From Vulcanimicrobiota bacterium (lineage in GTDB: Bacteria; Vulcanimicrobiota; Vulcanimicrobiia; Vulcanimicrobiales; Vulcanimicrobiaceae), in assembly GCA_963714015.1 (NCBI GenBank), contig OY970223.1, positions 3,040,001 through 3,104,000 on the forward strand: a stretch of DNA of 64,000 nt, in the 5' to 3' direction. The notes under the pieces were generated by a model. That model ran no database searches and was not told the DNA's origin. It worked only from the letters and a program-made list of their open reading frames with translations. Within the stretch, counting starts at the first letter, position 1. Every line of letters starts with the position of its first letter. The position numbers were made by a program, and so were the translations under genes. Shown here in pieces: positions 6,283-26,872 of the stretch.

Positions 6283-6790
6283 CTATCGTCGAAAGCCGAG
6301 CGGCTCGTGGGGCTGTTCCTTGGGCACCTGCAGCAAGGCGGCGGCTGCAAGGGCCGCTTCGTAACCTTTATCACCTTTTTTGGGGTCGCGCCCGCTCTTC
6401 TGCTTGCAGCAAGTTCTCGGTTGTTAAGACACCGAATCCAATCGGCACCCCAGTCGCGAGCTGCACCGTCATGATGCCGCGCGCGCACTCGCCCGCCACG
6501 TAGTTGAAGTGCGGCGTCTCTCCCCGAATAACGGCCCCAAGCGCGACGACCGCATCCAAGCGATCGTCGGCTTCGATGAGCCGCTTGGCCGCGAGCGGCA
6601 ATTCGAAGCATCCCGGCACGCGGTAAACCGTTACGTCCTCTTCGCGCACATTGCAATCGCGCAAGGCGCGGCGCGCTCCATCTTCGAGCCACTCTGCCAG
6701 TTGGTCGTAGAACTGCGCGACGACGAGAGCAAAGCGTTTCCCGGCAACGTCGTAATGCGCGACAGGCGATCCGTTTTGTTTTTTAGCCAT
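6283..6790 (-). CDS. ribH: 6,7-dimethyl-8-ribityllumazine synthase; apparent 1-nt frameshift near 6388
   Basis: VPGCFELP, ALGAVIRGETPHFNYV, FGVLTTEN. After the shift it continues DPKKGDKGYEAALAA to TAG at 6283. Confidence 0.93.
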
Positions 6791-7172
6791 CAATATTTTC
6801 TATAAGCCGCAGCCGGTTTCCGAACGGATCCAGCAGTTGCATCATTCGGCCCCAAGACTCTTTTTTAATGGCCGGACAACCGGGCGGTTTGGCGCCCAGC
6901 TCCGCCTGCAATGCATCTAGACCAGTCATGTGCACAAGCGAAGTCGAGCCCGGCGTTGCATCCCCGTAATGCTCGGAAAGATGAACGGTTAAGCCGTTCC
7001 GCGAGACTTGCATATACAGCGGTAGCCCTGGTTCAAAGCGATGCTCCCAATCGACCGTGCAGCCCAGATAGTCGATATAGAATTCCTTTGCTTTGTCGAT
7101 ATCGAATATCCGGAAGATCGGAATCGTCTTTGAAAATGTTGCAACGGCGGTATCGGCTGTCGAAGTGTTCAT
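6783..7172 (-). CDS. Glyoxalase/bleomycin-resistance (VOC) protein
   Basis: IPIFRIFD..KAKEFY..YLG..VDWEHRF...LHLSEH.GD.TPG...DPFGNRL. Confidence 0.85.
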   Translation of the reverse strand: MNTSTADTAVATFSKTIPIFRIFDIDKAKEFYIDYLGCTVDWEHRFEPGLPLYMQVSRNGLTVHLSEHYGDATPGSTSLVHMTGLDALQAELGAKPPGCPAIKKESWGRMMQLLDPFGNRLRLIENIDG

Positions 7173-8605
7173 TAGGTGTGATCTCCGTGCATCAGCGGCC
7201 CTTCCACGGGGATACCGTCGAGCAGATGCCCGAGTTTTGCGCGCTTCGTTGCGATATACCGCTTGTTGTGTGCCGTCGGTTCGGTCTGCATCGGAACCCG
7301 TCCGACGATCCGTATCCCATAGCCTTCGAGCCCAAAGATTTTACGCGGGTTATTGGTAAGGACGCGCATCTCCTTAACGCCTAAGTCGGCCAAAATCTGC
7401 GAACCGATTCCGTAATCCCGTTTGTCCACCGGCAGCCCGAGCGCGAGGTTGGCTTCCACCGTATCGGCCCCCTGATCTTGCAGTTGATACGCTCGCAGTT
7501 TGTTGGCCAGGCCGATGCCGCGCCCTTCCTGACGCAAATACAGAAAAATGCCGCGCCCTTCTTTGGCGATGATTTGCATTGCCCCGTCGCGCTGGGCGGC
7601 GCAGTCACAACGCAGCGAATGGAGCGCGTCGCCGGTCAAACATTCGGAGTGAACGCGCACCAGCAAATCTCTGCCGTCGCCGATCTCACCCATGACGAGT
7701 GCGACATGCGTGTTGCGGTCGATGGAATTTTCAAACGCGTAGCCCCGCCACGTTCCGATTTCGGTCGGCAATTGAAACTCCGCGATGCGATGCAGCAGTT
7801 TCTCCGTGCGCCAACGGTATGCAATGAGATCCTTGACCGTAATAAGCCGCACGCCGTGCTTCTTGGCAAAATCGATTAGGCCGTCCAGCCGCTCCATCGT
7901 GCCGTCTTCCGCCATGATCTCGCAAATTACGCCCGCGGGATACAATCCGGCGAGCCGTGCCAGATCGACCGCCGCTTCGGTTTGACCGGCGCGAACCAGC
8001 ACGCCGCCCTCGCGAGCACGCAGCGGAAAGGTGTGACCGGGTCGCAGCAGATCCGACGGACGTGTTGCCGAATCGAGCAGCGCTTGAATCGTCGCCGATC
8101 GATCGTGTGCCGAAATTCCTGTCGTCGTGCGCCCGCGCGCTTCAACCGAAACGGTGAACGCCGTTTCGTGCACGGCGCTGTTTTCGGAAACCATTTGCGG
8201 CAAATGGAGCTCGTCGAGTCGCCGGCCCGTCATCGGAACGCAGATCAAACCGCCCGCGTACTTGCGCATGAAGTTGATAGCTTCGGGCGTGACCATCTGC
8301 GCGGCCATAACGAGGTCGCCTTCGTTTTCGCGATCCTCGTCGTCGAGCACGATGACCATCTTGCCGGCACGAACGTCTTTGATCGCCTCCTCAATCGAGT
8401 CGAAAGGCGATGCCTTTTCCAGCGAATTGGTCAGGTCGGGCAAGACCTGAGTCAGCCGCTGCAAAGAGCGGTAGGACGGCTCACGCTGCCCGGACCGAAG
8501 GTACGAAATCGCAGCCTCCGTTAGCCCGCTGCGCTCAGCCAGGTCCGCGGCGTTAAGGCCTGCGGCTTCCATAGCCGTATTCAATTCCTCAGCAAAGGGA
8601 CTCAC
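7172..8605 (-). CDS. ribBA: XRE-type HTH fused to bifunctional DHBP synthase/GTP cyclohydrolase II
   Basis: Residues ~5-56 form an HTH (LNAADLAERSGLTEAAISYLRSGQREPS). RibB motifs DDEDRENEGDL, TTGISAHDR, RPGH. RibA motifs RVHSECLTGD, RCDC, QEGRGIGL..K, TNNPRK. Confidence 0.95.
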   Translation of the reverse strand: MSPFAEELNTAMEAAGLNAADLAERSGLTEAAISYLRSGQREPSYRSLQRLTQVLPDLTNSLEKASPFDSIEEAIKDVRAGKMVIVLDDEDRENEGDLVMAAQMVTPEAINFMRKYAGGLICVPMTGRRLDELHLPQMVSENSAVHETAFTVSVEARGRTTTGISAHDRSATIQALLDSATRPSDLLRPGHTFPLRAREGGVLVRAGQTEAAVDLARLAGLYPAGVICEIMAEDGTMERLDGLIDFAKKHGVRLITVKDLIAYRWRTEKLLHRIAEFQLPTEIGTWRGYAFENSIDRNTHVALVMGEIGDGRDLLVRVHSECLTGDALHSLRCDCAAQRDGAMQIIAKEGRGIFLYLRQEGRGIGLANKLRAYQLQDQGADTVEANLALGLPVDKRDYGIGSQILADLGVKEMRVLTNNPRKIFGLEGYGIRIVGRVPMQTEPTAHNKRYIATKRAKLGHLLDGIPVEGPLMHGDHT

Positions 8606-8611
8606 GGGCCC

Positions 8612-8641
8612 AGCTTACGCCGCGAACTTAACAACTGTCAA
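8612..8641 (-). promoter_or_regulatory. Probable leaderless promoter of ribBA
   Basis: Minus strand TTGACA (8641-8636), 18 bp, TAAGCT (8617-8612), 6 nt, GTG start at 8605; no Shine-Dalgarno. Confidence 0.6.
8631..8638 (+). repeat. Junction repeat 1, ACAACTGT (probable target-site duplication)
   Basis: tta-ACAACTGT-caaggtaacatac; the same 8-mer occurs at 10708, 15243 and 17853. Confidence 0.9.
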
Positions 8642-8690
8642 GGTAACATACTTGGCTCACCAGGGGCCTGGTGTCTGGTAGGATAGAGAG

Positions 8691-8981
8691 ATGGCCCGCG
8701 CTCGCTTCCACGGTTTGCTTGCGGAGATGGAAGACCGACTCGGCGGAAACTACAATTCCGCGCTCCTCGCAGCCATTCTCGCGGTTGCCCCAATGTTCGT
8801 GGTGGCGATGATTCATTCTGCGCTCGCTTGGCGCTGTCTTGAGTCGTTTTGGGTCGCACTAGTTCTAATTTTGCTAGCACGGGTCTTCCGAGTACAAGTT
8901 CGCGTAGCCCTATTGGGTGGTCTTCTCTGGCTTTGCGGTACGCTGGGCAATTTTTGTGCTACCTCCGGTGTCATCGGGTGA
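8691..8981 (+). CDS. Small hydrophobic cargo protein
   Basis: 96 aa with about three TM-like stretches, inside unit A. Confidence 0.45.
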   Translation: MARARFHGLLAEMEDRLGGNYNSALLAAILAVAPMFVVAMIHSALAWRCLESFWVALVLILLARVFRVQVRVALLGGLLWLCGTLGNFCATSGVIG

Positions 8982-9685
8982 AGTGAGTGCCCCTATTCCC
9001 TATCCAACCCCAATGCTGCAAACATGGGACGGAGTTTACTCTGGTTGGGCAACAGAGCGCGGAGCCAAGTTGCCATACTGGGCGGTAAATCTGTGTCTAG
9101 CCAATTTTGGGAATGAAGATGTCAAGGTAGTGACATACGAGACTTCTAAATTAGATTGGAATTATCGCGACGATCCCACGAAAGTGCGGCCGGTAGTGGA
9201 CAAGATGAGGGCGTCACTCGCTGTTCAAGAGGAAAGGGCGGAACACGCCTGGCCCGAGATTTATCATCCCGATGACCCACGATTACTATCCTGTTCGCAA
9301 AGGTTGGGATATTTCAGAAGACATCCGAGACCATTTTACTGGCACGCACTATATTCAGGTACATTCCGATCACGTAGTAGGGCGCGACGAGCAAATGCAA
9401 ATAATGGCTCAGTACAGAATCCTCTACTACGATGTGGATTTTGTAGAAACGAATTCGCGTGGTATGACCACCTGGAACGCTTGCGGAATCGTGGAGTGGC
9501 AAGGCAGTACAACCCCGTGTCCGGAGGCGGGGGTTAAAAAAGTGAACGACGATATTGACGGCGACGAAGCCATGAGGCGGTTTGAAGAACTCGGGACTAA
9601 ATTGTTCCAAATCAAGAAAGACCACGTTGAGGAAATCACTGAGGGGGAACCTGATGACTACTCGAGCCGGAGCCCGGATGAGTAG
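8982..9685 (+). CDS. Hypothetical cargo protein, probably one gene split by a frameshift near 9270
   Basis: Overlapping ORFs 8917..9537 and 9272..9685, each protein-like in complementary halves; visibly lower GC. Confidence 0.4.
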
Positions 9686-10638
9686 TCCGCAGAGCCGCGT
9701 TCTCGTTCTTCAATTCGCGATAGGTTACGCGCCGTCCGTCCGTATTCTTCAGCACGGCCACGAACCGCTCCGCGTCGTTCCCCTCGCGGGCGTTGAAGCG
9801 GAATACTTGCTCGTCAAGGTAGCGGTCTCAGATGGAACGGACGCGGGCAAATGTAGGTCCCTTTAATGGTCCGCTTCAGGCAGCTCCAGAAGTTCTCGAT
9901 ATTGTTCGTATGCACGCTTTCCGTCAACGTACCGAACCGAGTGGTCAACGAACTTATGCAGGTAGCGAATAGTCCAGCATCCGGTAGGAGCGCAGCGCAT
10001 CGGTGAACACTTGGAACCCGGTTCGACGTTCTGATAAATCTTCGGAAGCAGTACCGCGGCGCGATGGTTCGGAACGACCATAGCCTTCACGCGGCTTTTG
10101 CCTTTTTCTTCGGCGCGTTGCACCATGCCGAACACCGTCGTCTTTCCGGTGCCGGTCCGTGTTTGAGTTTGCGGAAGCCGCTCTTGGAAAAGTAGTTCGT
10201 GCGTACCTTACCGCCGACGAATGTTTCGTCCGCTTCAACTGTACCGGAGAACGCCGCGCCAACGCCGTCTTTCATGGATTCGCGGATGCGATGGAACATG
10301 AACCACGCCGTCTTTTGCGTGACACCCAGGGCGCGGTCCAGTTCACACGACGAGGTTCCGTTCTTCGTGTTTGCCAGGAGCCAAATTGCCGGAAGCCACT
10401 TGGTAAACGAAATCGGACTGTCCTCAAAAATCGTCCCAACCTTGACCGAGAACTGCCGTTTGCACTCTTTGCAGCGCCACATTTTGCGAGTCTTGAGGAA
10501 TTGGACGGACGCCGATCCGCAACCCATGCGCGGGCACGCGATGCCGTTCGGCCAGCGCAATTTAACCGCGTATTCGAACGCCCGCTCGGGGTCCGAGAAG
10601 AAGGTGACTGCCTCGATAAGCGTAGTCGGCGTGTCCAT
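9636..10638 (-). CDS. IS1595-family transposase with several frameshifts
   Basis: N-terminal zinc ribbon (RWPNG..CP..GC...WRCKEC), GTIFEDS, LGVTQKTAWFM.HRIR, VEADET, VFTD, HTNNIENFWS.LKR, RYLDE..FRFN. Confidence 0.92.
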
Positions 10639-10707
10639 GCTTTAACGGTATACTCGAGGGTGTTCCACCAGTGTGGCACTGTGAGGTGAGCCAAGTATAT
10701 TAGCTTG

Positions 10708-10715
10708 ACAACTGT
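10708..10715 (+). repeat. Junction repeat 2, ACAACTGT
   Basis: gtatattagcttg-ACAACTGT-caagatgatatacc. Confidence 0.9.
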
Positions 10716-10780
10716 CAAGATGATATACCTATTGCGGCTTTGCCCATTTCCGGCGAGTTGCACAAAGCGCTAAAGCGTGG

Positions 10781-11185
10781 CTATTGGTGCAGTAGCACGA
10801 TGGCAATCACGGCGTAAAGGCTCAGAACGACGCCACCTAGCGGTATCGCGAGTTTAAGACGAGGATTCGCCGGAACACTGGTCACCCGTGGAAAGGCATA
10901 CGCGAAGTAAGCCCACAGCGCAAGGCTAACGAGTGCTAAAGCAAGGCGCTCAGTCCTTCCAAGCACGGTTAGCCTGTGCACTTTCGGTAATCGATCTGAA
11001 GCCCCCAGATCGCCGATCTCGCATTGCCTGCGCCCAACCTCGTCTTGCAAGCGCAGAGAACGCTCGATCGCGGCCGCCAGGTTATCCTCGGCCTCGGTCG
11101 GCGTCGGCCCAAAGGCCACAATCTCGCGACCTGCGCCCTGCCCCCTGGCGTGGTAGCCGCCCGCAACCTGCAGTAGAGTAGCCAT
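10781..11185 (-). CDS. Hypothetical protein; N-terminus weakly HicB-like, hydrophobic C-terminus
   Basis: GGYHARG...IVAFGPTPTEAEDNLAAAI resembles the HicB G.T.EEA..N...AI pattern. Confidence 0.35.
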   Translation of the reverse strand: MATLLQVAGGYHARGQGAGREIVAFGPTPTEAEDNLAAAIERSLRLQDEVGRRQCEIGDLGASDRLPKVHRLTVLGRTERLALALVSLALWAYFAYAFPRVTSVPANPRLKLAIPLGGVVLSLYAVIAIVLLHQ

Positions 11186-11234
11186 GGTCCAAATTATCCC
11201 ACGCCGTAGCGTTACGTGGCAAATAACTTAATGC

Positions 11235-11350
11235 GGCGGGAAGGCGACCACGCGGAGCGGTTCTATACTGTGCTGAAGAACACGGACGGCCATCGCGTTA
11301 TGTATCGCACCTTGAAGGCGGAAAACCCGAACCTGCGTGTTATGCATCCT
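11235..11350 (+). pseudogene. Remnant of an IS1595 transposase C-terminus, inverted relative to unit A
   Basis: REGDHAERFYTVLKNTDGHRVMYRTLKAENPNLRVMHP versus unit A REGNDAERFVAVLKNTDGRRVTYRELKNENAALRTTHP. Confidence 0.85.
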
Positions 11351-11479
11351 CGGATATCTCGCCCGAATCTCGCCCGCGTCGTCCTCGATAATTTCCCGGT
11401 TATCGTCGTTCTTGCGAACGATTTTGCCGAGCAGGGTTTTCGAAGTTCTCCATAGCCTCGTCGCCGTTTACGTCGTCAT

Positions 11480-12314
11480 TCATAGCAAGTCCAACGCTTC
11501 ATCTGCCAGTTTGCCACCAAGGATTGTCGCCCACGCATCTAGCGCTTTCGCCATGGCTTGTACCGTTTTTGACGTTAATATTTGCCCCGCAATTATTTCG
11601 TGTGTTAGGTCCGTACTGCTTAAGCCATATCTTGACATCATATCGGTAACAATTCTTACGACCTTGGGCCTCACCTTGTCAAATTCGGTATTATCCACGG
11701 TAGTGCTCTCGAGCCATTCCTCAATTATTTCGCGCCCCGTCAGCCCTTTACGCTGCGATTTATGCAGCGTCATGTTATTCACGAACGATTCTAACATTGC
11801 AGAGACGCGCTTTATGCGTGTGTAGTCCGAAGCGAGGGGTGCAATGCGCGACCATTTCTCCGCGCTAATCTGCAAGTCGTTAACCCGCCCCACTAATTTG
11901 TCGTTTTCTAGCGATGCCTCTACCCAGCCATCCGATAACGCATCAGCCTCGGCCTTTAGACCCTCAGTTTTCGTACGCTCCTGTCGGACGATGCTCAATG
12001 GTGTCCTGCAATTTACTTTGGACACCGAGTGACTAAACGAATCAGTAGCCTGCGATGCGGTCGCCGACAAGGACAGGTCCTTTACTTGCGCGTCGTGCCA
12101 CCACAGCAATAGGCCGACCATAAGAAAAAGTGGAGATGAAATCTTGGACTTGCGCCACAAAGTGTCCCAGTTCGGTGTGCGCGTTATAATTCAGCGATGC
12201 CTGGACGGCGTTCTCGTGGTCGATTGCGTCCCATATTCTCCAGGCCCAACCCAGACCAGATATGACGAGCGTTGCAATCGTCGGCCTAGACGGACGCCAC
12301 ACTTTAGAGAACAT
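11480..12314 (-). CDS. Hypothetical membrane-anchored cargo protein (frameshifted)
   Basis: ORFs 12042..12314 and 11480..12160 overlap; TM segments followed by a helical region; lower GC. Confidence 0.4.
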
Positions 12315-12409
12315 CCAGATCGTTTGCGCCGTGAGCGCGACTGATCATTTTGTGACCCTCGATGAGACCAAGGCTGGACTGAAAAAAGCGCCCTCCTTAC
12401 CCTATTAGG

Positions 12410-12497
12410 GCATTGGTGCCTCAGGTGGCTTTGCACATCAAAGGGCGGCTGCACATAAAATACGCTGCTTGCACATAAAACCGAGCCGCTGCAATTA
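12410..12497 (+). repeat. Internal transposon-end-like sequence with periodic GCACATAAAA repeats
   Basis: gtgCCTcAGGtGGCTTTGCACA matches the unit B/C ends. GCACAT repeats at 12433, 12451 and 12471; homologous to 17870-17928. Confidence 0.7.
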
Positions 12498-12661
12498 GGA
12501 ACAGTTTATTTCGTCCGTACGCTTGCAAAGCATGGTATATTTGCGCCATGTTGCCGCGACGGTGGTCGCGGGCAGGGAGTAAAGGGCTCCCCACCCGCAT
12601 CCTCCATCGGGGACGGTCGGAAGCTCCAGGGGTTCCGATCTCGCGCTCCAGGAGGAAAACT

Positions 12662-12808
12662 CTACTCCGGTTTTGGCGCACGACGAGGTGTGTTCCAATA
12701 CGGACTTTTGCACTTCGGGCAAACCATCGGGTCCTGCGACTTGTCCCGAGGCAGCCATTCGTGCCCGCATCGGTCGCACCGATAGCCGGACAGTTTCACC
12801 TTCGCCAT
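12662..12808 (-). CDS. 48-aa zinc-ribbon protein (not in the ORF track)
   Basis: Hand translation MAKVKLSGYRCDRCGHEWLPRDKSQDPMVCPKCKSPYWNTPRRAPKPE*; two CxxC motifs; TTGACG-18-TATACT 6 nt before the ATG. Confidence 0.8.
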   Translation of the reverse strand: MAKVKLSGYRCDRCGHEWLPRDKSQDPMVCPKCKSPYWNTPRRAPKPE

Positions 12809-12814
12809 TCCCGT

Positions 12815-12890
12815 AGTATATACCCACTAGTCTCATACCGTCAATATACCCCCTGGTAGGTTGACTCTGCGCTATCCCTTGTGGTATATT
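12815..12890. promoter_or_regulatory. Divergent promoter pair (zinc-ribbon gene and transposase)
   Basis: Minus strand TTGACG (12844-12839), 18 bp, TATACT (12820-12815). Plus strand TTGACT (12861-12866), 18 bp, TATATT (12885-12890) with a TGn extension. Confidence 0.6.
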
Positions 12891-12920
12891 CTCTTTAGGA
12901 ATATACGAAGGGGTACGAAG

Positions 12921-14141
12921 ATGGAAGCACGGGAACAGCGCGGGCTCGAAATCGCAGCCACCAAGAAACTCGAAAAGTCCGGCCAGAAGTGGCTTGTCCC
13001 ATCCTCCACCGGATCGGGCACGTACGTTGTCGATCCCACCGTCTACGGGCCGGCGACCTGCACTTGTCCCGACTACGAGCTGCACCAAGAGCCGTGCAAA
13101 CACGTCTACGCGGTCGAGTTTACGATCCGACGCGAAACGACGGCCAAGGACGGTACCGTGACGACCGAAACGATCACGTACCGCCAGGAATGGGCCGCGT
13201 ACAATGCGGCACAGGGCAATGAGAAGGTCCGCGTTGCGGAGTTGCTTCGCGAACTGTGCGGCGCAATCGACAACCCACTCCAAAAGCGCGGTCGTCCGCG
13301 TCTGCCGCTCTCCGATCGCGATCTTCTGCGCCGTGATGAAGGTTTACGGCGGAATGTCCGCCCGCCGCTCGGCTTTGCGACCTGAACGACTTTGCCGCTC
13401 GCGGCTTCATCGACAAAGCGCCGCACTTCAATTCCGTTCTCAACGCCCTCGAAAATCCCGATGTAACGGCCATCCTCAAGAACATGATTGAGGAAAGCGC
13501 CGCTCCGCTCGTGACGCTGGAAACGGACTTTGCGGCCGATTCCTCCGGCTTCACGCCCACGACCTATGCCCGGTGGTTCGACGCGAAGTACGGGCGCGAA
13601 ATGACCAAGCACCATTGGCTCAAGGCGCATATCACCGTCGGAACCCGCACGAACATCGTTACGGCGGTCGAAGTCACGGACTACAACGTCCACGATTGCC
13701 CCGTACTGCCCGACCTGCTCAACACGACCGCCAAGCGGTTTACGATGGAGCGCGTTTCGGCCGATAAAGGCTACCTGTCCGATGCGAACGTCCGCGCTAT
13801 CCACTCGCACGGCGCGGTCGCCTTCATCCCGCCGAAAGTCCAACAGCCGTTTCGGCCCCATGCCCGACGCAAGCCGCAAGCGTTCCGACGTATGGCACAA
13901 AATGTTCCACTACTACGCTTTCAAGCGCGACGAGTTTCTGCGCCATTACCATCGGCGGAGCAACGTCGAAACGACATTCCACATGATCAAATCCAAGTTC
14001 GGCAGCCGTATCCGCTCGAAAACGCCTATCGCGCAGACGAACGAAGTTCTCGCGAAGGTCCTGTGCCACAACCTGTGCGTACTCGTTCAGTCCGCGTATG
14101 AACTCGGGATCGAATCGACGTTCTGGAAGCAAACGGCGTGA
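12921..14141 (+). CDS. SWIM zinc finger + DDE (IS4/IS5-like) transposase; about 3 frameshifts
   Basis: SWIM motif CTCPD...PCKHVYAV; RGRPRLP; DFAADSSGF; ADKGY; YHRRSNVETTFHMIK.KFG (Y-2-R-3-E-6-K). Confidence 0.9.
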
Positions 14142-14169
14142 CAGGTCTGAGGTCTTTGGAGGTCCCGAC

Positions 14170-15021
14170 ATGATCCCTATAATCCTGGTGCTAGCCATGG
14201 GTAGTACACCAACCGCGGCTTACGATTTGCCAAGGATCGAGCACCGGTACGCTATAGCCGAAGATAATCAGCGCGATCCCCAAACCCGCAACACCGCCGC
14301 CCAACATTCGGCGGCGAGGGAGCAGATCAACACCAACCCACAGGACTGCTCCTCCGCCGACAATCAAAACACAGCACAGTGCGAGGACGCTAAGAATAAC
14401 CAAAGAATCGCTGTCGCAAACGAGCACATGGTTACTCTCACTATTGTTATCGCTGCTGTTGGCGTTATGCAAACGCTTGCTCTCGTTCTTACGTTGGTAG
14501 CCACCCGAAAGGCGGCGAACGCTACGGCTAAGAGCGTTGACCTTTCCGAACGGTCGCTGAAGATCACTGAGCGTGCACACCTTCAGGTGAGCCAGATTGA
14601 GGTGCGGAGCGGCTTGACGAGTGGGAACATCCCCCGGATCGTAGTGTCGATTGCGAACCGAGGAAGGACACCAGGAACTATAGTAAGCAGTGTTTTTAAA
14701 TTTCAAATCTTCGACACAATTCCAGAATCGCCAACCTTTGATGGCGAGACTCCCAATCAGGTTTTGGTTGGTCCTGGGAACACCGAGACGTCCGATATTA
14801 TGACGCAACACGCCGTCACAACGGACGAGATCGAAGCGATAAAGGCTGCGAAAAAGCAGTTGGTCGTCTGGGGCAGAGTGTTCTATCTCGACGTGTTCGG
14901 GGACCGCCACGAAATGCGGTTTGGGTGCGCGATGAAAATGCACGATCATACCCCGGGCACTCAGGACTATAGGGTGACGTTCAAACAGTTGGTTGGTGAA
15001 GATTACAATCGGGCCGACTAA
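14170..15021 (+). CDS. Hypothetical secreted/membrane cargo protein
   Basis: Signal-like N-terminus, a TM segment (IVIAAVGVMQTLALVLTLVA), then a soluble domain (I.N.G.TPG, G.V.Y.DVFG..H). Confidence 0.65.
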   Translation: MIPIILVLAMGSTPTAAYDLPRIEHRYAIAEDNQRDPQTRNTAAQHSAAREQINTNPQDCSSADNQNTAQCEDAKNNQRIAVANEHMVTLTIVIAAVGVMQTLALVLTLVATRKAANATAKSVDLSERSLKITERAHLQVSQIEVRSGLTSGNIPRIVVSIANRGRTPGTIVSSVFKFQIFDTIPESPTFDGETPNQVLVGPGNTETSDIMTQHAVTTDEIEAIKAAKKQLVVWGRVFYLDVFGDRHEMRFGCAMKMHDHTPGTQDYRVTFKQLVGEDYNRAD

Positions 15022-15116
15022 CGCGAGAGCAGGTATTTTTCCGGTATGCTGAACTTGCGAACCGACCGCTCTTGAGCCATGCCCTGCGGTAACGGGTTGA
15101 CGCTCACGGGCTACGG

Positions 15117-15149
15117 AGGGGATCGGGGAATCCGGTCCCCTTTTCGTTT
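15117..15149 (+). terminator. Intrinsic terminator
   Basis: AGGGGATCGG-ggaat-CCGGTCCCCT followed by TTTCGTTT. Confidence 0.7.
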
Positions 15150-15242
15150 GCTGAGAGGCCGCACATAAAATCGGCAGGCTGCACAAAAAACACGCCCCCA
15201 GGAGCAATAAATGTGCAAAGCCGCCTCAGGTATATCATCTTG

Positions 15243-15250
15243 ACAACTGT
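15243..15250 (+). repeat. Junction repeat 3, ACAACTGT
   Basis: ggtatatcatcttg-ACAACTGT-caaggtaccgtacc. Confidence 0.9.
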
Positions 15251-15310
15251 CAAGGTACCGTACCTAAGGCGGCTTTGCACAAAAAGGCACTTTTGGGGCT
15301 GCTTTTATAT

Positions 15311-15567
15311 GTTGAGCAGGTCGGGGAGTACGGGGCAATCGTTGACGTTGTAGTCCGTGACTTCGACCGCCGTAACGATGTTGGTACGGGTTCCGACGTT
15401 AACATGCGCCTTGAGCCAATGGTGTTTGGTCATTTCGCGCCCGTACTTGGCATCGAACCAGCGGGCATACGTCGTGGGCGTGAAGCCGGAAGAATCGGCA
15501 GCGAAGTCTGTTTCCAGGGTCGCGAGCGGAGCGGCGCTTTCCTCAATCATTCTCTTGAGGATGGCCG
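15311..15567 (-). pseudogene. Internal fragment of a SWIM-DDE transposase, inverted relative to unit B
   Basis: AILKRMIEESAAPLATLETDFAADSSGFTPTTYARWFDAKYGREMTKHHWLKAH...DCPVLPDLLN, nearly identical to the protein encoded at ~13468-13723. Confidence 0.9.
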
Positions 15568-15591
15568 AAGTGCGACCAGCGCTGCAGCCAG

Positions 15592-17268
15592 TTACGCGCT
15601 TGGCAGTGTCTGCAATGGTGAAGTCAGCGTAAGCAGCGCGTATGCGCTGCCGGTGCGATACGTGAGAAGTGCAAGCGTTTCGGTCTCTTCCGGCAAGTAA
15701 TGCGTGCGATCGCGCTTGGGACCACAGATGACAAAGCCGATAAGTTCCGCACGCGCGGTCATCGGCAGCAGCAGTGATCCACGCAATGGATGTGCGGGCT
15801 CGTCGCATTCGAACGGTTCGTGCCAACGCCGCAAACGCAGCACTGCAAAATCGTGAGACGGCAGAATGGAAGGTGTGGGGGCGCTTGGCGTCGCGAGCGC
15901 ATACGCCGACCCGTCGGCCGTGTAGATCGCGACGAAGTCGCTCTCGAGGCGTTGACGCAGCGCCTCGTATGTCTGCAACAACAAGTATTTCGGGTCTGAA
16001 ATAAGGTCGGTCTCCTGCGCGAAGCGCCGTAACGCTTGCATCGCCGCCGTTTGCGAACGGAAGATGATTCGGTTGAGGAATCCTTCGATACGGCGATGAG
16101 CATGCGTGAGGACGACGCCGATGAATACCGCGAGCAGCAACTCCGCGGCGAGAGCGAAACGTGACTCTTCGAGCCATCTGCCGAAGCCCCAATCCACCAG
16201 AGCGAGCAGGGCGATCGTGATTGACGTGATGGTACCGTACAACAGTGCGCGGCTGACCACGAATCGGATGTCGAACAAGCGGTGGCGCAGGATCGTGTAG
16301 GCCAAGGCAATCGGCGCGAGCAGCATCCACGCTTGTGCAAGGTTGATATACGAAACTTCCGCGTAAATGCCGAACATGGGCGCGAGAATATTGTCGATGA
16401 CGATCGAGGGTAAAAACGCGACGGCGAAGGACAGCACAACCCAGCGCAGCCGATTACGGCGCGCTTCATCAGCCTGAACGTATCTGGCGATCAAAATCAC
16501 GATGGCGACGACGTAGATGCTGTTGAGCACGGCGCCGTACACCGTCCAATACGCGGTCGGAGCTCGCGCTCCGGAGACCACCAGCACGACCATCGGAATC
16601 AGCAAGGCAAGCCATACCGCGGGCACAAAAAACGCGATGAGCGCACGTTCGAGTAGCGCTCCGGCGCCGCGCGGCGTTGAATCGGGAAACCGCAGCGCGA
16701 ACGAGACAAAGCCAGCTGCCGATGCCGGAAGCGCAATCGACACGATGAGAGTGACGAGATACTGGGCCGCAGGGTATTCGAGAATCAGTGTGCCGACGAG
16801 GCAAAAGTTGTAGAGAAACGCGTAAAAGGCCCACGTGACGGGGCTCGGCCGGAAGAGCACGAGCGCGGCGGCGAGCAAAATGGCCGCCCACAGTGATACT
16901 ACCGCGATATAATCCGTGACGTTGTCGATGGCCGTTCGACCGAACGGATGCGAACGTAATGTCACGAGCCTGCCCGAACTGAGCGGAAGAGTTATAACGG
17001 CTCCGTCGGGTGCACCGGCATCGTAGCCCAGCGTTAGTGAGGCGCGACCGGTGGGGGATAGGCGACGCATGTCGATGACGTCACCGGCCCGCAAGCCTGC
17101 TCTCGATGCTTGCGCATCCACCGAGGTAATGTAACCGTTCTGCCCCGCGCCAAAGCCGTATGTCGAATACGGATGCCAGGGCAGAAGCAGATCTCCGCCG
17201 TTGGCGAGCAGCGAAGCGGCGGTAAGAACGACAATGAAGACAGTCCGGATGACTGCCCGCGTGTCCAT
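15592..17268 (-). CDS. Multi-TM protein with PDZ-like N-terminal region and C-terminal GAF-like domain
   Basis: ASRAGLRAGDVID, about 9 TM segments, LAYTILRHRLFDI, LLPMTARAELIGFVICG...EE...L; paralogous to 46088-47855. Confidence 0.75.
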   Translation of the reverse strand: MDTRAVIRTVFIVVLTAASLLANGGDLLLPWHPYSTYGFGAGQNGYITSVDAQASRAGLRAGDVIDMRRLSPTGRASLTLGYDAGAPDGAVITLPLSSGRLVTLRSHPFGRTAIDNVTDYIAVVSLWAAILLAAALVLFRPSPVTWAFYAFLYNFCLVGTLILEYPAAQYLVTLIVSIALPASAAGFVSFALRFPDSTPRGAGALLERALIAFFVPAVWLALLIPMVVLVVSGARAPTAYWTVYGAVLNSIYVVAIVILIARYVQADEARRNRLRWVVLSFAVAFLPSIVIDNILAPMFGIYAEVSYINLAQAWMLLAPIALAYTILRHRLFDIRFVVSRALLYGTITSITIALLALVDWGFGRWLEESRFALAAELLLAVFIGVVLTHAHRRIEGFLNRIIFRSQTAAMQALRRFAQETDLISDPKYLLLQTYEALRQRLESDFVAIYTADGSAYALATPSAPTPSILPSHDFAVLRLRRWHEPFECDEPAHPLRGSLLLPMTARAELIGFVICGPKRDRTHYLPEETETLALLTYRTGSAYALLTLTSPLQTLPSA

Positions 17269-17339
17269 CCTCGCAGAACTTCGTGCTCCGACATACCTTC
17301 CCCGCTGCGCAGGAATCGCGCTTTCCGCAACGTCGCCGG

Positions 17340-17790
17340 CGCGAGAGTAGAGCGATACGCACGGGGCGATCGTCGGCGATATTCCCAACACGCCGGGCGT
17401 GCACGGCATCGCACTTGCACCCGAACTCGGCAAGGGCTTTACGTCGAACGGTTCCGACGGCGCGGTAACGGTGTTCGATTTGAATTCGCTCAAACCCATG
17501 ACGACGATTCAAACGGGTGCCAAGGGGCCGGACGGCATCGTGTACGACCCCGCCAATAAGCGCGTGCTGACGTTCAACGGCGAGAGCAACGACGCGACCG
17601 CCAGCGACGCGCAAAACGACCGCGTCGTGGCGACGATTCCGCTTGGCGGACGACCGGAGTTTCCTGTCGCGGACGGCAAAGGCATGGTGTACGACAACAT
17701 CGAGAGCACGAGCGAAATCGTCGCGATTGACACGTCGAGCGCGGCAATCGTCGATCGCCGGAGTTTGGGAAGTTGCCAAAGCCTGTCGGG
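17340..17790 (+). pseudogene. Fragment of a YncE/YVTN-like beta-propeller gene
   Basis: GDIPNTPGVHGIALAPELGKGFTSNG...GPDGIVYDPANKRV...GRPEFPVADGKG; lacks the N- and C-terminal parts. Confidence 0.75.
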
Positions 17791-17852
17791 CAAACCCATT
17801 CGAGGCCTCGCCTTGGCAGCCTCGGTCAAGGTGAGTCAGGTATATCACCCCG

Positions 17853-17860
17853 ACAACTGT
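17853..17860 (+). repeat. Junction repeat 4, ACAACTGT
   Basis: ggtatatcaccccg-ACAACTGT-caaagtggccgtacc. Confidence 0.85.
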
Positions 17861-17930
17861 CAAAGTGGCCGTACCTGAGGGGCTTGCACATGAATCGACG
17901 CTTGCAATAAAATCGAGCCGCCGCAATGAA
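17861..17930 (+). mobile_element. Array unit D: degenerate B-type left end; right boundary not found
   Basis: CAAAGTGGCCGTACCTGAGGGGCTTGCACA, then cttgcaataaaatcgagccgccgcaat, matching cttgcacataaaaccgagccgctgcaat at 12468-12495. Confidence 0.65.
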
Positions 17931-17976
17931 GGCGAGAATGCCACCCGTGTGGCGCCGTTCCGAGTAGTATTTTCCC

Positions 17977-18255
17977 ATGAACCTAGAAACGGGAGCGGTC
18001 CTTTTAGCGCAGATGCAAGCCGACGGCGGAAGATATCGCAATAAGGCGGTTGTCAATGCGGTGCGCGCTGCCGTTGCCATCGTCGTCTGGTTACTGCACG
18101 CGGGCGCCTTCAGCAGCATTGCCTTTTTCATATTCGTAATCTGCGGGTACCTTACGCTGTCAAACTTGGAGCAGTGGAACATCACCAGGCGGCAACAAGA
18201 GTCTGTTGCTCTAGTTATCCTCGGCACAAGTATTTGCGTTTGCGGCGCTCGATGA
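17977..18255 (+). CDS. Small hypothetical membrane protein
   Basis: 92 aa, 2-3 hydrophobic segments. Confidence 0.35.
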   Translation: MNLETGAVLLAQMQADGGRYRNKAVVNAVRAAVAIVVWLLHAGAFSSIAFFIFVICGYLTLSNLEQWNITRRQQESVALVILGTSICVCGAR

Positions 18256-18519
18256 ATATTGCAGCAGCTTGTTTCGGGTGCGCAAAGGATCGGCAAACCC
18301 ATCCCTCTTCCGGACCCGTGGATTGAACGTGCCAATTCCCCGATGAGAAAGCGAGCGAACGGCTTGCTCGCCTGGTCGTTCATCCTTTCACTGGCAATGG
18401 TAGTGTTCCGCCGTCAGCTTCCTAAACTCGGCCCGTTGCCTAGAGTATTTTGTGTCGCTTCCTGCCCTGGCGGGAAGCATGACAACCTGTATTCGACGGT
18501 TCAAGGCCACGGAGACGAA

Positions 18520-19620
18520 GTGTATAAAGCAAAAGCATACGCCGCGGAAACGGCATCATCCGCGCTCACATTGACGACGATACCGCGGCGAGATCTCACG
18601 CAAAACGACGTTCAGATCGAGATATTGTTCTGCGGCATCTGCCATTCGGATTTGCACACAGTGCGCGACGAGTGGGGCGGAACGGTTTACCCGGTCGTTC
18701 CGGGTCATGAAATCGTCGGACGCGTCACAAATGTCGGCTCGGCGGTCACTGCTTTCAAGCCAGGCGATCTTGTGGGCGTCGGATGCCTAGTCGACTCCGA
18801 CGGCACGTGCGAACAGTGCCGCGCCGGCTACGAGAATAATTGCCCGAACCGGGTGCTTACTTACAATTCGTCCGATACGTACCTTGGGGATGTTACCTAC
18901 GGCGGCTACTCCGAGAGCATCATCGCCGACGAACGCTTCGTTCTGCGCATCCCGGAAAATCTTGATATAGCGGGCGCGGCACCGCTGCTATGCGCGGGGA
19001 TCACGACATACTCGCCGATGCGCCATTGGGGCGTCAAGGAAGGTCAGAAAGTCGGCGTTGTCGGGCTGGGCGGTCTCGGTCACATGGGCGTCAAGTTCGC
19101 ACGCGCGTTCGGCGCGCACGTCGTTGTCTTCACCACCTCGCCCAACAAGAAAGACGACGCGCTGCGCCTCGGGGCGAACGACGTGGTGGTTTCGCGAAAT
19201 GCAGACGAGATGCAAGCCCATGCGAACACTTTTGACTTCATCTTGGACACCGTTTCAGCGCAGCACAACATCGACGCATATCTGGAGCTGCTTGCACCGA
19301 ACGGCACCTTGGTCTTGGTCGGCGCTCCGCCGGAGCCGTTGAGCGTGTCTGCATTCAGCCTCATTGCAGGGCGCCGCAGTCTTGCAGGCTCCAATATCGG
19401 TGGAATCCGCGAAACGCAGGAAATGCTTGACTTTTGCGGACGGCACAATATCACGTCGGACGTCGAGGTCATCTCAATTCAAGACGTCAACGACGCTTAC
19501 GAGCGGATGGCCAAATCCGATGTGAAGTACCGCTTCTCGATCGATATGGCGACGCTGAAATCACAGAGTGCTGAAGACGACTCAACAAAGAAGCGCCTAT
19601 CCGAAGCGCATTCTCGGTAG
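18520..19620 (+). CDS. NAD(P)-dependent Zn alcohol dehydrogenase (cinnamyl-ADH/YahK type)
   Basis: CGICHSD, PGHEIVG, APLLCAGITTYSP, GLGGLGHMG, DVKYRF; GGAG RBS before the GTG at 18520. Confidence 0.93.
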   Translation: MYKAKAYAAETASSALTLTTIPRRDLTQNDVQIEILFCGICHSDLHTVRDEWGGTVYPVVPGHEIVGRVTNVGSAVTAFKPGDLVGVGCLVDSDGTCEQCRAGYENNCPNRVLTYNSSDTYLGDVTYGGYSESIIADERFVLRIPENLDIAGAAPLLCAGITTYSPMRHWGVKEGQKVGVVGLGGLGHMGVKFARAFGAHVVVFTTSPNKKDDALRLGANDVVVSRNADEMQAHANTFDFILDTVSAQHNIDAYLELLAPNGTLVLVGAPPEPLSVSAFSLIAGRRSLAGSNIGGIRETQEMLDFCGRHNITSDVEVISIQDVNDAYERMAKSDVKYRFSIDMATLKSQSAEDDSTKKRLSEAHSR

Positions 19621-20040
19621 CAGCCCGTGACGGACACTCTCGTCGCGGCAGGTTGTGGTAGAGCCCGCCTGCCCCTCGCTTGATGAGGGCGTTAGCACGC
19701 CTGGCAGTAGAGTGACAAGGCGCGTTTAGTGTTCTGCGATGCGGGTACTCGACCTTCAGAAAAATGGAGCCCCGCCCCCGTGATAAACAGCCTCCTCCTT
19801 TACGCGATCGGATCGCTCATCTCGCGACCGATTTAGATTCACTTTCCCGCGCGATACACGAAGAGCTGGACTGGCGCGAAAAGCTCGAGCCTGAACCGGC
19901 GGACGACAACGACAACGGCTAGTACGCCAACGTTCCCGCGTCCAGAACGATCCGATGGTCCCGACTGCGTTGATTACTGCGGCTCGATAAGGTGTTTCTT
20001 TATCGTAGTACGGCCGGTTTGAATGGGTACACGCAGCAGC

Positions 20041-23152: not shown

Positions 23153-23720
23153 ACCGCGCGATTGGGTCGACTTCCAAATTCACTGAATCCCCCGGCTCCC
23201 GCCGCCCCAGCGTAGTGCGCTCGAGTGTTTCGGGAATCAAGGCGATCTCGAACCAAGTGTCGGCCACATTCGCTACCGTGACGCTGACGCCGTCAACGCT
23301 GATGAACGCCTTCTCACACACGTACCGCCGCAACGCCGCCGGTAAAGCGACGCGCATGCGTTCGCCTTGTCCTTCGGGCGTGCGCGAAAGCATTTGTCCG
23401 GTAGCATCGACATGGCCGTACACGAAGTGGCCCCCCATGCGGTCGCCGAGCCTGAGCGAATACTCGACATTGACCACGTCGCCTTCGCGCAGCGAGCCCA
23501 GATTCGAACGCGCCAGCGTTTCGGGAACGACGTCGAAGTCCACGATGTTGTGATCGACGCGCGTTGCCGTCAAGCAGACGCCGTTGACTGCAATCGAATC
23601 CTTCGGTTCAACTTCTTCCTCCGATGCATTCTCGCAGCGCAAGGTCAACGTAAGGCCGCCGCCATGCACCGGCGTAATGCGTTGAACCTTTCCCGTATAA
23701 GCGATGAGCCCGCTAAACAT
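23130..23720 (-). CDS. ribE: Riboflavin synthase alpha chain
   Basis: MFSGL start, DSIAVNGVCLT, GGHFVYGHVD, SVDGVSVT, IPETL..T, VNLEVD. Confidence 0.95.
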   Translation of the reverse strand: MFSGLIAYTGKVQRITPVHGGGLTLTLRCENASEEEVEPKDSIAVNGVCLTATRVDHNIVDFDVVPETLARSNLGSLREGDVVNVEYSLRLGDRMGGHFVYGHVDATGQMLSRTPEGQGERMRVALPAALRRYVCEKAFISVDGVSVTVANVADTWFEIALIPETLERTTLGRREPGDSVNLEVDPIARYAVHAQV

Positions 23721-24810
23721 CCGTCTCCACAATCCCCGAGATATGCAAATCTGCTCCCAACCGTTCGACGCGGTCGAATCGAAGGCCCGGCGAGCCGTTG
23801 AGATCGCCCGCAGCGATGACGGGCACCGCCGAAGCGGTGCGCAGCAGCCGCGGTGCAATCAGCCAGTGTAAGCGATCGACGAGTCCGTAAGTCAGCAGGT
23901 GTCCGGCCATCGTCGGGCCGCCCTCGCAGAGCACGCTGGTTATCTCTCGCGCACGCAATTCGTGAAAAGCTTGCGGTATATCGAGCCGAACGTCGCTGTC
24001 CTTGCCGACGTAGATGACGTCCGCCACCGTTTCGACTTCGAGGAATTTCGGTTTGGCGCCGGCTGGAGCGAGGACGATCGTGCGCGCGTACCCTTCAGCC
24101 GGTTCAAAGACTACGCTGCGCGGATCGACCGAATCGGTCTCGCAAGCGACGATGCGAACGTACTCGCGCAATCGATGATGCGCGGGGCGCACTGTAAGCT
24201 GCGGATTATCGATCCGCACCGTTCCGGCGCCCACGATGACGGCGTCGTGAGCGATGCGCAGATCGCGCACGAACGTGCGCGCTTCGCCTCCCGTCAACCA
24301 CTCTTGCCGTCCGCTCTGAGGTGCGACGTACCCGTCCAGCGACATCGCCATCTTCAGCGAAACGTACGGGCGATCGGATCGTATCGCGCGTGCGAACGGC
24401 TCGATCAATGCACGCGATCGTTCGTCATCCTTCACCGCCACGTCGATGGCCCGTTGGCGCAGGAAGGCGATTCCGCCGCCCGCGGTCCGCGGGTTCGGAT
24501 CGATTGCACCAACCACCACGCGCGTGATCCCGGCGGCGGCAACGGCGTTCGAACAAGGCGGCGTGCGGCCCTGATGATTGCATGGCTCCAGCGAAACATA
24601 AAGCGTTGCGCCGTGAGCGGCGTCGCCGGCTTGCCGGACGGCGAGAATCTCGGCGTGCGGCTCTCCCGCCCGATGGTGGTAGCCTTCGCCTGCGATAGCG
24701 TCGCCGGCGACCACGACCGCGCCGACCGGCGGATTCGGCGAGGTGTTTCCGATTCCGCGTTCGGCCAGTTCGCACGCCCGTTCAAGGAAAATCCGGTCTA
24801 GCGCGTCCAT
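23713..24810 (-). CDS. ribD: Riboflavin deaminase/reductase
   Basis: TSPNPPVGAV, HAE, LEPCNHQGRTPPC, KMAMSLDG, DNPQLTVR, EGGP. Confidence 0.96.
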   Translation of the reverse strand: MDALDRIFLERACELAERGIGNTSPNPPVGAVVVAGDAIAGEGYHHRAGEPHAEILAVRQAGDAAHGATLYVSLEPCNHQGRTPPCSNAVAAAGITRVVVGAIDPNPRTAGGGIAFLRQRAIDVAVKDDERSRALIEPFARAIRSDRPYVSLKMAMSLDGYVAPQSGRQEWLTGGEARTFVRDLRIAHDAVIVGAGTVRIDNPQLTVRPAHHRLREYVRIVACETDSVDPRSVVFEPAEGYARTIVLAPAGAKPKFLEVETVADVIYVGKDSDVRLDIPQAFHELRAREITSVLCEGGPTMAGHLLTYGLVDRLHWLIAPRLLRTASAVPVIAAGDLNGSPGLRFDRVERLGADLHISGIVETDV

Positions 24811-24935
24811 CGATCTACCTCCAAATATTGCGCCTAGTCCGGTTTCCGGCCTTGTCCGGTGCGCGGTGCCGGTATTCCGACATTTATCGGGCTCGAGGCA
24901 AGCGACGCGTTCTGCCGTGTCGAACGCGCCGAGCC

Positions 24936-26861: not shown

Positions 26862-26872
26862 GTGAAAGAACG

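Follow-up and report, generated by a model that had tools for sequence, protein, structure and literature searches.

The IS1595 family of insertion sequences (IS) is regarded as a group of ordinary transposons without target specificity. Tn7 recognises a sequence at attTn7 and inserts a fixed distance away from it, beside a conserved essential gene, and several elements can accumulate there. IS30 targets its own ends, and the resulting end-to-end dimers, in which the ends abut at a short spacer, are unstable intermediates. Expandable arrays with different cargo at one place are formed by integrons and by IS26 translocatable units. We analysed a stretch of 64,000 nucleotides (the window) from a Vulcanimicrobiota bacterium (assembly GCA_963714015.1, contig OY970223.1, positions 3,040,001 to 3,104,000), in which a head-to-tail array of passenger-carrying IS1595-type elements lies upstream of the ribBA gene and is interrupted by a second, unrelated IS. 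Searches of the literature turned up no account of an IS1595 clade with site specificity or of this locus.

The array elements share with the passenger-carrying members of the IS1595 family (ISNwi1-like group) the Zn-ribbon_IS1595 and DDE_Tnp_IS1595 domains, inverted repeats (IRs) of ~23 bp, an 8-bp target site duplication (TSD), and unrelated passengers. They differ from the family in occupying a single genomic site, in having CAAG tips instead of GG-type tips, and in forming head-to-tail stacks. In contrast to the unstable dimers of IS30, the ribBA stacks are fixed arrays. Unlike integrons and IS26 arrays, the locus has neither an integrase or attC nor a single shared IS copy, each unit having its own IR pair and a true TSD; the 17 open reading frames (ORFs) scanned in the region contain no recombinase domain, and units occur in both orientations. 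The second IS, a SWIM/IS5-like element, shares with Tn7 the insertion at a fixed distance. The differences from Tn7 are the use of a single DDE transposase, a target in a promoter and not at the 3' end of a gene, and, for the IS1595-type elements, insertion inside the recognised sequence, which is regenerated. No TnsA/TnsB/TnsC-type domains were found in the scanned ORFs of the window or in 26 element ORFs of relatives, no dedicated search having been made elsewhere in the genome.

The Drosophila P element has a 14-bp palindromic target with the 8-bp TSD in its middle; the last 3 nt at the transposon ends restore this target, and regeneration of a "safe haven" that draws more insertions was proposed (PMC2577343). 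The ribBA elements resemble the P element in that the 8-bp TSD is centred in a palindrome and the transposon tips restore the target. The P-element preference is degenerate and genome-wide, whereas here we find one site per genome, a 4-nt mimicry, a rebuilt -35 box, and stable bacterial stacks. The closest precedent is this palindromic target with a staggered cut and restoration by the tips (PMC2577343), an arrangement that recurs at the ribBA locus, where it is carried to the extreme of a single site. According to Tobes and Pareja (2006, PMC1525189), the transposases of REP-specific IS are highly selective for a short palindrome; the repetitive extragenic palindromic (REP) sites are multicopy, whereas the ribBA site is unique until the IS multiplies its copies.

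IS1595-type elements stacked at the ribBA palindrome

The 8-mer ACAACTGT occurs four times in the window (starts at 8631, 10708, 15243, and 17853, on the + strand throughout), against 0.79 copies expected from shuffling; 1 of 100 shuffles of the window got to four. An initial annotation, made from the letters of the window, had reported that transposon-like ends adjoin these four identical 8-mers without spacer and delimit units of 2069, 4527, and 2602 bp. Reading of the junctions and a check of the coordinates bore this out: an end-like sequence follows every copy of the 8-mer and also precedes the three internal copies, with zero spacer. The genome, a metagenome-assembled genome (MAG) in one contig of 3.56 Mb, contains 21 copies of ACAACTGT on both strands, and IS-like ends abut the four array copies only. 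The remaining 17 copies are unoccupied; thus, the 8-mer alone is not the target, or is not sufficient. In the array, the 8-mer is the middle of a 16-bp palindrome (CTTAACAACTGTCAAG at 8627, CTTGACAACTGTCAAG at 10704 and 15239, and CCCGACAACTGTCAAA at 17849). A scan of the genome for the palindrome with ≤2 mismatches gave eight matches, three of which are array copies, and the other five abut no IS end; the site is unique in this genome. All junctions show a single type of end, the 23-bp IS1595-type IR, which is interrupted 16 nt in, at four places, by the IR of the second IS. A blastn comparison of positions 8401 to 20000 with the genome matched only repeats within the region and three short stretches of paralogous genes, and copies of either element outside the array were detected neither by blastn nor by the palindrome scan.

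The N-terminal ORF of the unit A transposase matched PF12760 (E = 1.6e-12) and the NCBIfam model NF033547 (76.5 bits for a cutoff of 75). An intact relative in genome G119 (genomes and loci of relatives are cited by such handles) matched NF033547 with 179.7 bits, together with PF12762 and PF12760. Relatives were drawn from 121 genomes of the host family and from a public genome collection (51 loci), the closest loci belonging to the phylum Candidatus Eremiobacterota/Vulcanimicrobiota. A common 23-bp IR was found in the 130 nt upstream of the transposase genes. The IR of generic (non-site-specific) relatives starts with GGGGA(T/C)TATA, with GG-type tips, and perfect 8-bp direct repeats, unrelated in sequence, adjoin 11 of the 12 such elements with both ends (AAACATTC, CATATCTT, AAACGTCC, GCACCTGC, ATAAGAAT, CGCGCTCC, ATTGTTAT, ACTGCTGA, AGAGTTAG, AACTTTCG, and ATATTTTT). 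Because the generic relatives show 23-bp IRs with 8-bp repeats, the IR boundary was fixed and the TSD of the family set at 8 bp; the same comparison gave the IR length and boundary of unit A and ruled out element tips at TGT combined with a duplication of 2 bp, such as some IS5 groups show. By transposase, IRs, and TSD, units A, B', C', and D' are members of the IS1595 family. The IS1595-type elements are 1.8 to 4.8 kb long and carry unrelated passenger genes.

The IRs of the site-specific clade (site clade) start with CAAG(A/G)TGATATA, the tips being CAAG or CAGG. Compared with the ISfinder consensus of the ISNwi1-like subgroup, which begins with GG..AT TAT, the inner part of these IRs fits and the tips do not. 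On both sides of the site-clade elements, the 8-bp repeat is the centre of the local ribBA palindrome (ACAGTTGT in G119, ACAAATGT in G090, ACAACCGT at L094, and ACATCTGC at L095). The direct repeat is perfect in four of the five elements examined, the fifth, in G108, having the reverse complement. The two central bases of the palindrome differ between genomes (AC, GT, AA, CT, TC, and GA) and those of the 8-mer always equal the native site of the genome; the 8-mer therefore does not belong to the element as a fixed component.

A RibBA homologue was found in all 41 relatives searched. The native palindrome, CTTAACA-NN-TGTCAAG (16 bp), overlaps the -35 box of the putative promoter of the gene for RibBA, which here carries an N-terminal helix-turn-helix (HTH) domain. 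The sequence CTT(A/G)ACA-NN-TGT(C/G)AA(G/C) lies just upstream of the ribBA start in 9 of 9 aligned relatives, and 13 of 13 further flanks have one palindrome site adjoining ribBA. At empty sites (G018, G017, G011, and G020), the palindrome is followed by ordinary, non-IS sequence. Single insertions at an otherwise empty site were found in G090 and G119 and at L094 and L095, those of G090 and G119 lying cleanly between ribBA and a conserved block (~20041 in the window). The distance from the palindrome to this block ranges from 0.3 to 12.6 kb in relatives and is 11.4 kb here; the stretch is therefore a variable hotspot.

All five of the closest transposase homologues in the 121-genome sample (75 to 84% identical) are located at the palindrome, which is present at the ends of 0 of 19 more distant transposase loci. 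The 11 rows of the site clade require a single change in a quick tree (support 77) and lie inside a clade with a support of 98 that includes six generic sisters from the same phylum. The pattern formed by the 8-mer and the left IR (IRL), with one mismatch allowed, was found at 93 places in 72 of 348 genomes and 24 of 78 genera of the family, and the reversed control gave 0; a few of the genomes in the family tallies (G010, G021, G023, G036, and G117) carry an unpublished flag, and no claim depends on any of them alone. Nine of the 12 places that were fetched lie beside ribBA. The other three are the far boundary of an element in G003, where the 8-mer is the same as on the ribBA side, a junction without ribBA at a contig end (G084:C22), which is likely the continuation of the array of G084, and one spurious one-mismatch match. 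Elsewhere, stacks of at least two units are present in G108, G084, G267 (L090), G349 (L113), G323, and G149, with two elements head to head in G084 and three palindromes over two contigs in G108. The transposase gene points toward ribBA in the window, in G098, and in unit 1 of G084, and away from it in G090, G119, and G108.

The 8-mer is, as the initial annotation had proposed, a repeatedly re-used 8-bp TSD of IS1595-family cargo elements that builds a head-to-tail array, and the close homologues are not scattered solo copies with unrelated TSDs but occupy the same site in other genera. As a correction, the 8-mer is the centre of a 16-bp native palindrome. The edge of a resident element, proposed as the landing place, is dispensable, since the palindrome is a native, conserved part of the promoter and single insertions have occurred there (G090, G119, L094, and L095). 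The likeness drawn to integrons and CRISPR is superficial, no recombinase being involved.

A SWIM/IS5-like element at a fixed offset

Two transposon types had been thought to share one 8-bp site, and unit C had been called chimeric. We find instead that the presumed second type ("B-type" ends, GGCTTTGC(A/C)CA with subterminal GCACATAAAA-like repeats) represents the ends of an IS5-like element encoding a SWIM + DDE_Tnp_1 transposase, which is nested in the array, has its own 9-bp TSD, and lies at a fixed 16-nt offset from the palindrome; nested IS5-like IRs account for both the B-type and the chimeric ends. The nested copy is bounded by a perfect 9-bp TSD (GCCTCAGGT at 12418-12426 and 15223-15231), and its right IR lies 16 nt from palindrome 3. 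It sits in the right IR (IRR) of unit B', which is consequently in two pieces (12415-12426 and 15232-15242). With the nested element removed, the rejoined pieces form a normal IS1595-type IR (CAAGATGATATACCTGAGGCACC on the other strand) that is identical to the IRL of the unit at 17 of 20 positions. Palindromes 2, 3, and 4 each have a solo or truncated IS5-like IR on their right, with a gap of 16 nt every time.

The SWIM transposase matched PF01609 (DDE_Tnp_1; 92.8 bits) and the additional SWIM domain PF04434. The best NCBIfam model was that of IS5 (NF033579), which was matched over its full span with 125.6 bits for a cutoff of 140. Intact relatives have a single ORF of 405 to 410 aa (G125, G058, G095, and G092). 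The nested element shares with IS5 and IS903 the DDE_Tnp_1 domain, the 9-bp TSD, and IRs starting with GGC, the tips of which are presumably like those of IS903. It differs from the IS5 family in its extra N-terminal SWIM domain, its passenger gene, a score below the NCBIfam IS5 cutoff, and the fixed 16-nt offset from a palindrome. IS903 is listed with a 9-bp TSD (PMC2577343, Table 1).

The element adjoins the ribBA palindrome in G125, G058, and G068, in both orientations and with perfect 9-bp TSDs (TGTCGTCGC, ACATGAGTC, and GGGCCGGAC); TSDs of 9 bp were also found for the relatives in G095, G060, and G092. The pattern ACANNTGTCAAG-N{8,24}-GGCTTTGC occurs at 21 places in 19 genomes and 13 genera, the gap being 16 nt in 19 cases and 17 nt in 2, and the reversed control of this palindrome-gap-IR pattern gave one match. 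The 16 nt that separate the palindrome from the IS5-like IR do not resemble IS1595 sequence in G125 and G068. The element thus appears to be positioned by the palindrome, or by something bound there, and not by local sequence. We also considered a second IS that targets the IR of the first family, an explanation weakened by the 16 nt of G125, G068, G053, G049, and G277, which are not IR-like, although they may be very old IR relics. No local motif of the IS903 type was present around the 9-bp TSD in the flanks examined. On the ribBA side of palindrome 1, a 16-nt offset falls in the -10 region, and no insertion was seen there in the ribBA-upstream sequences examined, no systematic search having been made.

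More distant SWIM relatives (~50% identity) are located elsewhere, with other 9-bp TSDs (CTTGCAATG, GTTTCGGTG, and GCGCCGTAC). One of them, at ~6610-14421 of G060:C1 (L053), has IRs that are identical over at least 45 nt and lie 7.8 kb apart, with the TSD GTTTCGGTG; this form is either a large passenger-carrying element or a composite. Another, ~55% identical (G095:C1, L052, ~8448-11790), has its 9-bp TSD CTTGCAATG directly beside a palindrome, TTGCA-N4-TGCAA, and palindrome-guided targeting may therefore be wider in the SWIM/IS5-like group.

The putative ribBA promoter, the proposed mechanism, and its alternatives

The -35 box at 8636-8641 is composed of TGT from the TSD and CAA from the tip of the IR. 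The layout TTGACA-17/18-TAnnnT-6/7-start is present in 15 of 18 aligned genomes, and two more have CTGACA or TCGACA. From this layout, we infer a ribBA promoter of the leaderless-mRNA type, the right half of the palindrome being the -35 box. The HTH domain of RibBA is of the XRE type, and the palindrome spans the -35 box and the spacer. All examined genomes of the host family, as well as both genomes examined from a sister family, combine the palindrome with the HTH domain. In a third family of the same class, residues 1 to 61 are missing from five of five ribBA genes, one further locus gave no ribBA match, and no palindrome (≤4 mismatches) was found in ~0.7 kb upstream of ribBA. The co-occurrence of the HTH domain and the palindrome across families suggests that riboflavin synthesis is autoregulated by the enzyme itself.

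With a probability of about 85%, we consider that the array arose by serial, site-specific DDE transposition into a single native site and that a second layer of targeted insertion was added later. The sequence of the native site is CTTA-ACANNTGT-CAAG, the element ends are CAAG...CTTG, and the outermost 4 nt of the site-clade IR (CAAG) are the outer 4 nt of the palindrome. Elements of the site clade would cut the palindrome symmetrically with an 8-bp stagger, and the central ACANNTGT would be duplicated, leaving the junctions CTTA-8-mer-CAAG(element) on the left and (element)CTTG-8-mer-CAAG on the right. Because the tips equal the outer bases of the palindrome, each insertion would rebuild the -35 box before ribBA as well as a full palindrome at both element ends, so that the target is renewed on both sides. 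Later elements could enter any of the renewed and multiplied copies, and a full target on both flanks would thus lead to head-to-tail stacks with units parted by the 8-mer only. Selection to keep ribBA expressed may be the reason for the change from GG-type to CAAG tips. The IS5-like element would land with its IR 16 nt (17 nt in two cases) from the palindrome, on either side and in either orientation. In stacks, this position corresponds to nt 12 to 20 of the IR of the first family, which would be split; such splitting and later deletions would have generated the solo IRs and the B-type and chimeric ends.

Several observations weigh against this reading. The ends of unit C' match at 11 of 20 positions, and unit D' has a left end only; therefore, at least part of the array has been reshaped by deletion or recombination, besides insertion. 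In G108, the 8-mers that flank the first element are ACAGTTGT toward ribBA and, at the far end, its reverse complement ACAACTGT, and the next element has ACAACTGT on both sides. This flipped 8-mer (L084/L092 on G108:C2 and L088 on G108:C6) is not predicted by simple serial insertion; it could have come about by inversion of a unit with its flanks or by exchange with another strain. Since the transposase genes are broken in this genome, activity is deduced from comparative anatomy only. Most occupied sites in the survey have one matching end only, intact two-ended elements being a minority or the second ends having diverged. Many of the genomes are fragmented MAGs, for which per-genome counts are rough, and two of them (G149 with L151/L152 and G350 with L153/L154) include two contigs that each have ribBA and an occupied palindrome, probably as a result of strain mixtures. 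The transposase tree is a quick tree. A scan with a strict sigma-70 consensus misses the ribBA promoter, the -10 box of which matches at 3 of 6 positions; the promoter was retained because its layout is conserved across genomes.

The targeting step could be different from direct recognition by the transposases: both transposons may find the site via a bound host protein, most plausibly the HTH domain of RibBA acting as an autorepressor. This idea, which we hold to be possible although doubtful, is compatible with the anatomy. It would fit the sharing of one landmark by two unrelated transposase families, of which one inserts at the dyad and the other 16 nt from its edge regardless of local sequence, and TnsD of Tn7 provides an example of insertion at a fixed offset beside a protein-bound site. 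The palindrome also co-occurs with the HTH domain across families and is unique in the genome, as expected for a single autoregulatory operator. However, binding of the palindrome by the HTH domain is hypothetical, and the transposases have no sequence similarity to this domain. The IS1595-type tips copy the outer bases of the target, which fits direct recognition by the transposase. Cutting at the dyad might be impeded, and not helped, if a protein sat there, and distant SWIM relatives insert elsewhere despite their SWIM domain. Another explanation would limit transposition to one or two insertions and attribute the array to recombination, through homologous exchange with the arrays of other strains or through deletions and inversions that involve pairs of IS copies. 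In its favour, the ends of unit C' are mismatched, unit D' has no right end, several of the IS remnants are truncated, the G108 8-mer shows that units can be rearranged together with their flanks, and the 60-bp palindromes at the junctions could recombine. We nevertheless regard this origin as unlikely. The passengers are unrelated, and the IR pairs differ from unit to unit yet match within unit A (21/23) and unit B' (17/20); the succession of exact end, 8 bp, and end is found at every junction; stacks in other genera have intact, different transposase genes (G084 and L090); and single clean insertions with perfect TSDs identify insertion at the site as the primary event.

Cassettes moved by a site-specific recombinase, with the palindrome as the core and the transposase genes as passengers, would be suggested by the 7-bp inverted arms and 2-bp centre, which resemble the crossover site of a serine recombinase, and by the native left arm CTTAACA and the element-borne CTTGACA, which are distributed like attL and attR. 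This is highly improbable in view of the scanned ORFs, which are devoid of recombinase domains, of the 23-bp IR and 8-bp TSD architecture of generic relatives at random sites, of the boundary of the IR at CAAG and not at TGT, and of the occurrence of elements in both orientations, which a non-palindromic 2-bp core disallows. We give equally little credit to the assumption that the tandem structure is an artefact of assembling a repeat-rich metagenomic region. In favour of an artefact, the genome is a MAG. A public read run with 5% of the sampled words yielded short contigs only, none of which bridges a junction, and it neither supports nor contradicts the assembly; one read-derived piece (17839-18022) reaches just 14 letters to the left of the 8-mer, and a 1076-bp skip at 16103/17180 in the read contigs, which carries 13 other letters, probably comes from a paralogue or another organism. 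Against an artefact, the genome is a single 3.56-Mb contig, the units are not copies of each other and offer little to mis-join, and the same architecture is found in MAGs of other genera.

Under serial transposition into the native site, one clade of the IS1595 family uses a single site in each genome, in at least 24 genera that belong to an uncultured phylum, for a reason that is legible in the DNA: the tips copy the flanks of the target, the essential promoter would survive, and the target would be renewed. This may be a route by which an IS becomes a benign, site-specific carrier of cargo without a recombinase or Tn7-like machinery, and the stacks would be accretion points for many unknown passenger genes. 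The second transposase, at its fixed distance of 16 nt, gives an independent handle on the steering of DDE transposases, and both elements are compact candidates for site-directed integration tools, if the specificity holds. A more speculative proposal, to which we lend limited credence, is that the promoter/operator palindrome of an essential gene acts as a recombinase-free dock for two unrelated DDE transposases, presumably via bound HTH-RibBA; the tips of the first family would have evolved to restore promoter and dock alike, so that the dock would multiply at each insertion, and the second family would be a hyperparasite that settles at a fixed offset beside every dock made by the first and disables the ends of the first family. 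If true, this would represent natural, minimal (single-protein) integration at a single, self-renewing site and a bacterial counterpart of the transcription-factor-tethered integration of yeast retrotransposons.

Decay, passengers, and coordinates of the features

Among the IS1595-type units, transposase sequence survives only in unit A and as a remnant in unit B' (Table 1). Unit A has kept both ends and has a dead transposase gene, the frame changes of which are visible in a tblastn alignment to the intact G119 protein. The array in this genome appears to be a fossil that is currently immobile, because both transposase genes are frameshifted. Unit C' is probably a fusion of remnants, since its ends are mismatched and it contains gene fragments with paralogues elsewhere; the paralogues of its ORF stretches are 87% identical over 161 nt, 66% over 650 nt, and 75% over 382 nt. 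The transposase fragment at 15310-15567 in the truncated IS5-like copy is 92% identical to positions 13467-13724 of the nested copy (258 nt). For unit D', a search as far as the conserved block gave no right IR, and the right limit was set where synteny with relatives resumes (~20041). The gradient of decay away from ribBA in the window fits polar growth; the other arrays show no consistent pattern.

Table 1. Features of the array and the adjoining ribBA gene (positions are those of the window).
Feature	Position	Strand	Description
HTH_3-RibBA fusion (DHBP synthase + GTP cyclohydrolase II, N-terminal helix-turn-helix)	7172..8605	-	PF00926, PF00925, PF01381
Candidate leaderless ribBA promoter	8612..8641	-	-35 TTGACA 8636-8641; -10-like TAAGCT 8612-8617; 18-nt spacer; GTG start 8605 at 6 nt
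Palindrome copy 1, CTTAACAACTGTCAAG	8627..8642	+	Left half native, right 4 nt from unit A IRL; TSD copy 1 8631-8638
Unit A, IS1595-family passenger-carrying IS, 2069 bp	8639..10707		IRL 8639-8661, IRR 10685-10707, 21/23 identical
Unit A passenger region	8691..9685	+	Overlapping ORFs, no family match
Unit A transposase pseudogene, Zn_ribbon_IS1595 + DDE_Tnp_IS1595	9675..10638	-	At least 3 frameshifts
Palindrome copy 2, CTTGACAACTGTCAAG	10704..10719	+	TSD copy 2 10708-10715
Unit B', decayed IS1595-type, 4527 bp	10716..15242		First 20 nt of IRL 10716-10735
Solo IR remnant of IS5-like element (GGCTTTGCCCA...)	10736..10790 (extent approximate)	+	Exactly 16 nt from palindrome 2
Unit B' ORFs	10781-11185, 11480-12160	-	No family match
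IS1595-type transposase C-terminal remnant, unit B'	11213..11353	+	46% identical to residues 268-317 of G119 protein
Nested IS5-like element, 2796 bp	12427..15222	+	IRs GGCTTTGCACA..., subterminal GCACATAAAA-like repeats
Nested IS, SWIM + DDE_Tnp_1 transposase	12861..14101	+	Two frames, 12861-13385 and 13484-14101; Pfam
Nested IS, passenger ORF, 307 aa	14098..15021	+	No family match
Palindrome copy 3, CTTGACAACTGTCAAG	15239..15254	+	TSD copy 3 15243-15250
Unit C', composite remnant, 2602 bp	15251..17852		First 20 nt of IRL 15251-15270, IRR 17830-17852
Second IS5-like copy, inverted, truncated	15271..15567	-	IR start 15271, 16 nt from palindrome 3
Unit C' ORF, 635 aa, membrane-like	15592-17499	-	
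Unit C' truncated YVTN-type beta-propeller ORF	17399-17878	+	Reads through right IR of the unit
Palindrome copy 4, degenerate, CCCGACAACTGTCAAA	17849..17864	+	TSD copy 4 17853-17860
Unit D'	17861..20020		First 20 nt of IRL 17861-17880; degenerate IS5-like IR (GGCTTGCACA...) at 17881, after 16 nt
Zinc alcohol dehydrogenase gene, unit D'	within 18259-19620		

The passenger ORFs are unrelated between units and between genomes and have no family match. Pfam models matched 0 of 11 passenger ORFs of the site clade, an all-against-all blastp comparison of 35 passenger ORFs gave one weak pair, and no shared functional theme emerged from these two analyses. Passengers of generic sister elements (L093, L097, L100, and L111) include Cas2-like, DUF3800, PIN-domain, and SocA/Panacea antitoxin-like proteins, which hints at toxin-antitoxin or defence cargo. 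Farther downstream in the window (24828-28816), two tandem paralogous genes encode M61 peptidases, the first of 677 aa and the second, which has a PDZ domain, of 652 aa. The loci of relatives contain no DNA match to this 4-kb stretch, homology jumping from ~24809 to ~28828, and the pair sits between ribD (23713-25044) and the next conserved stretch.

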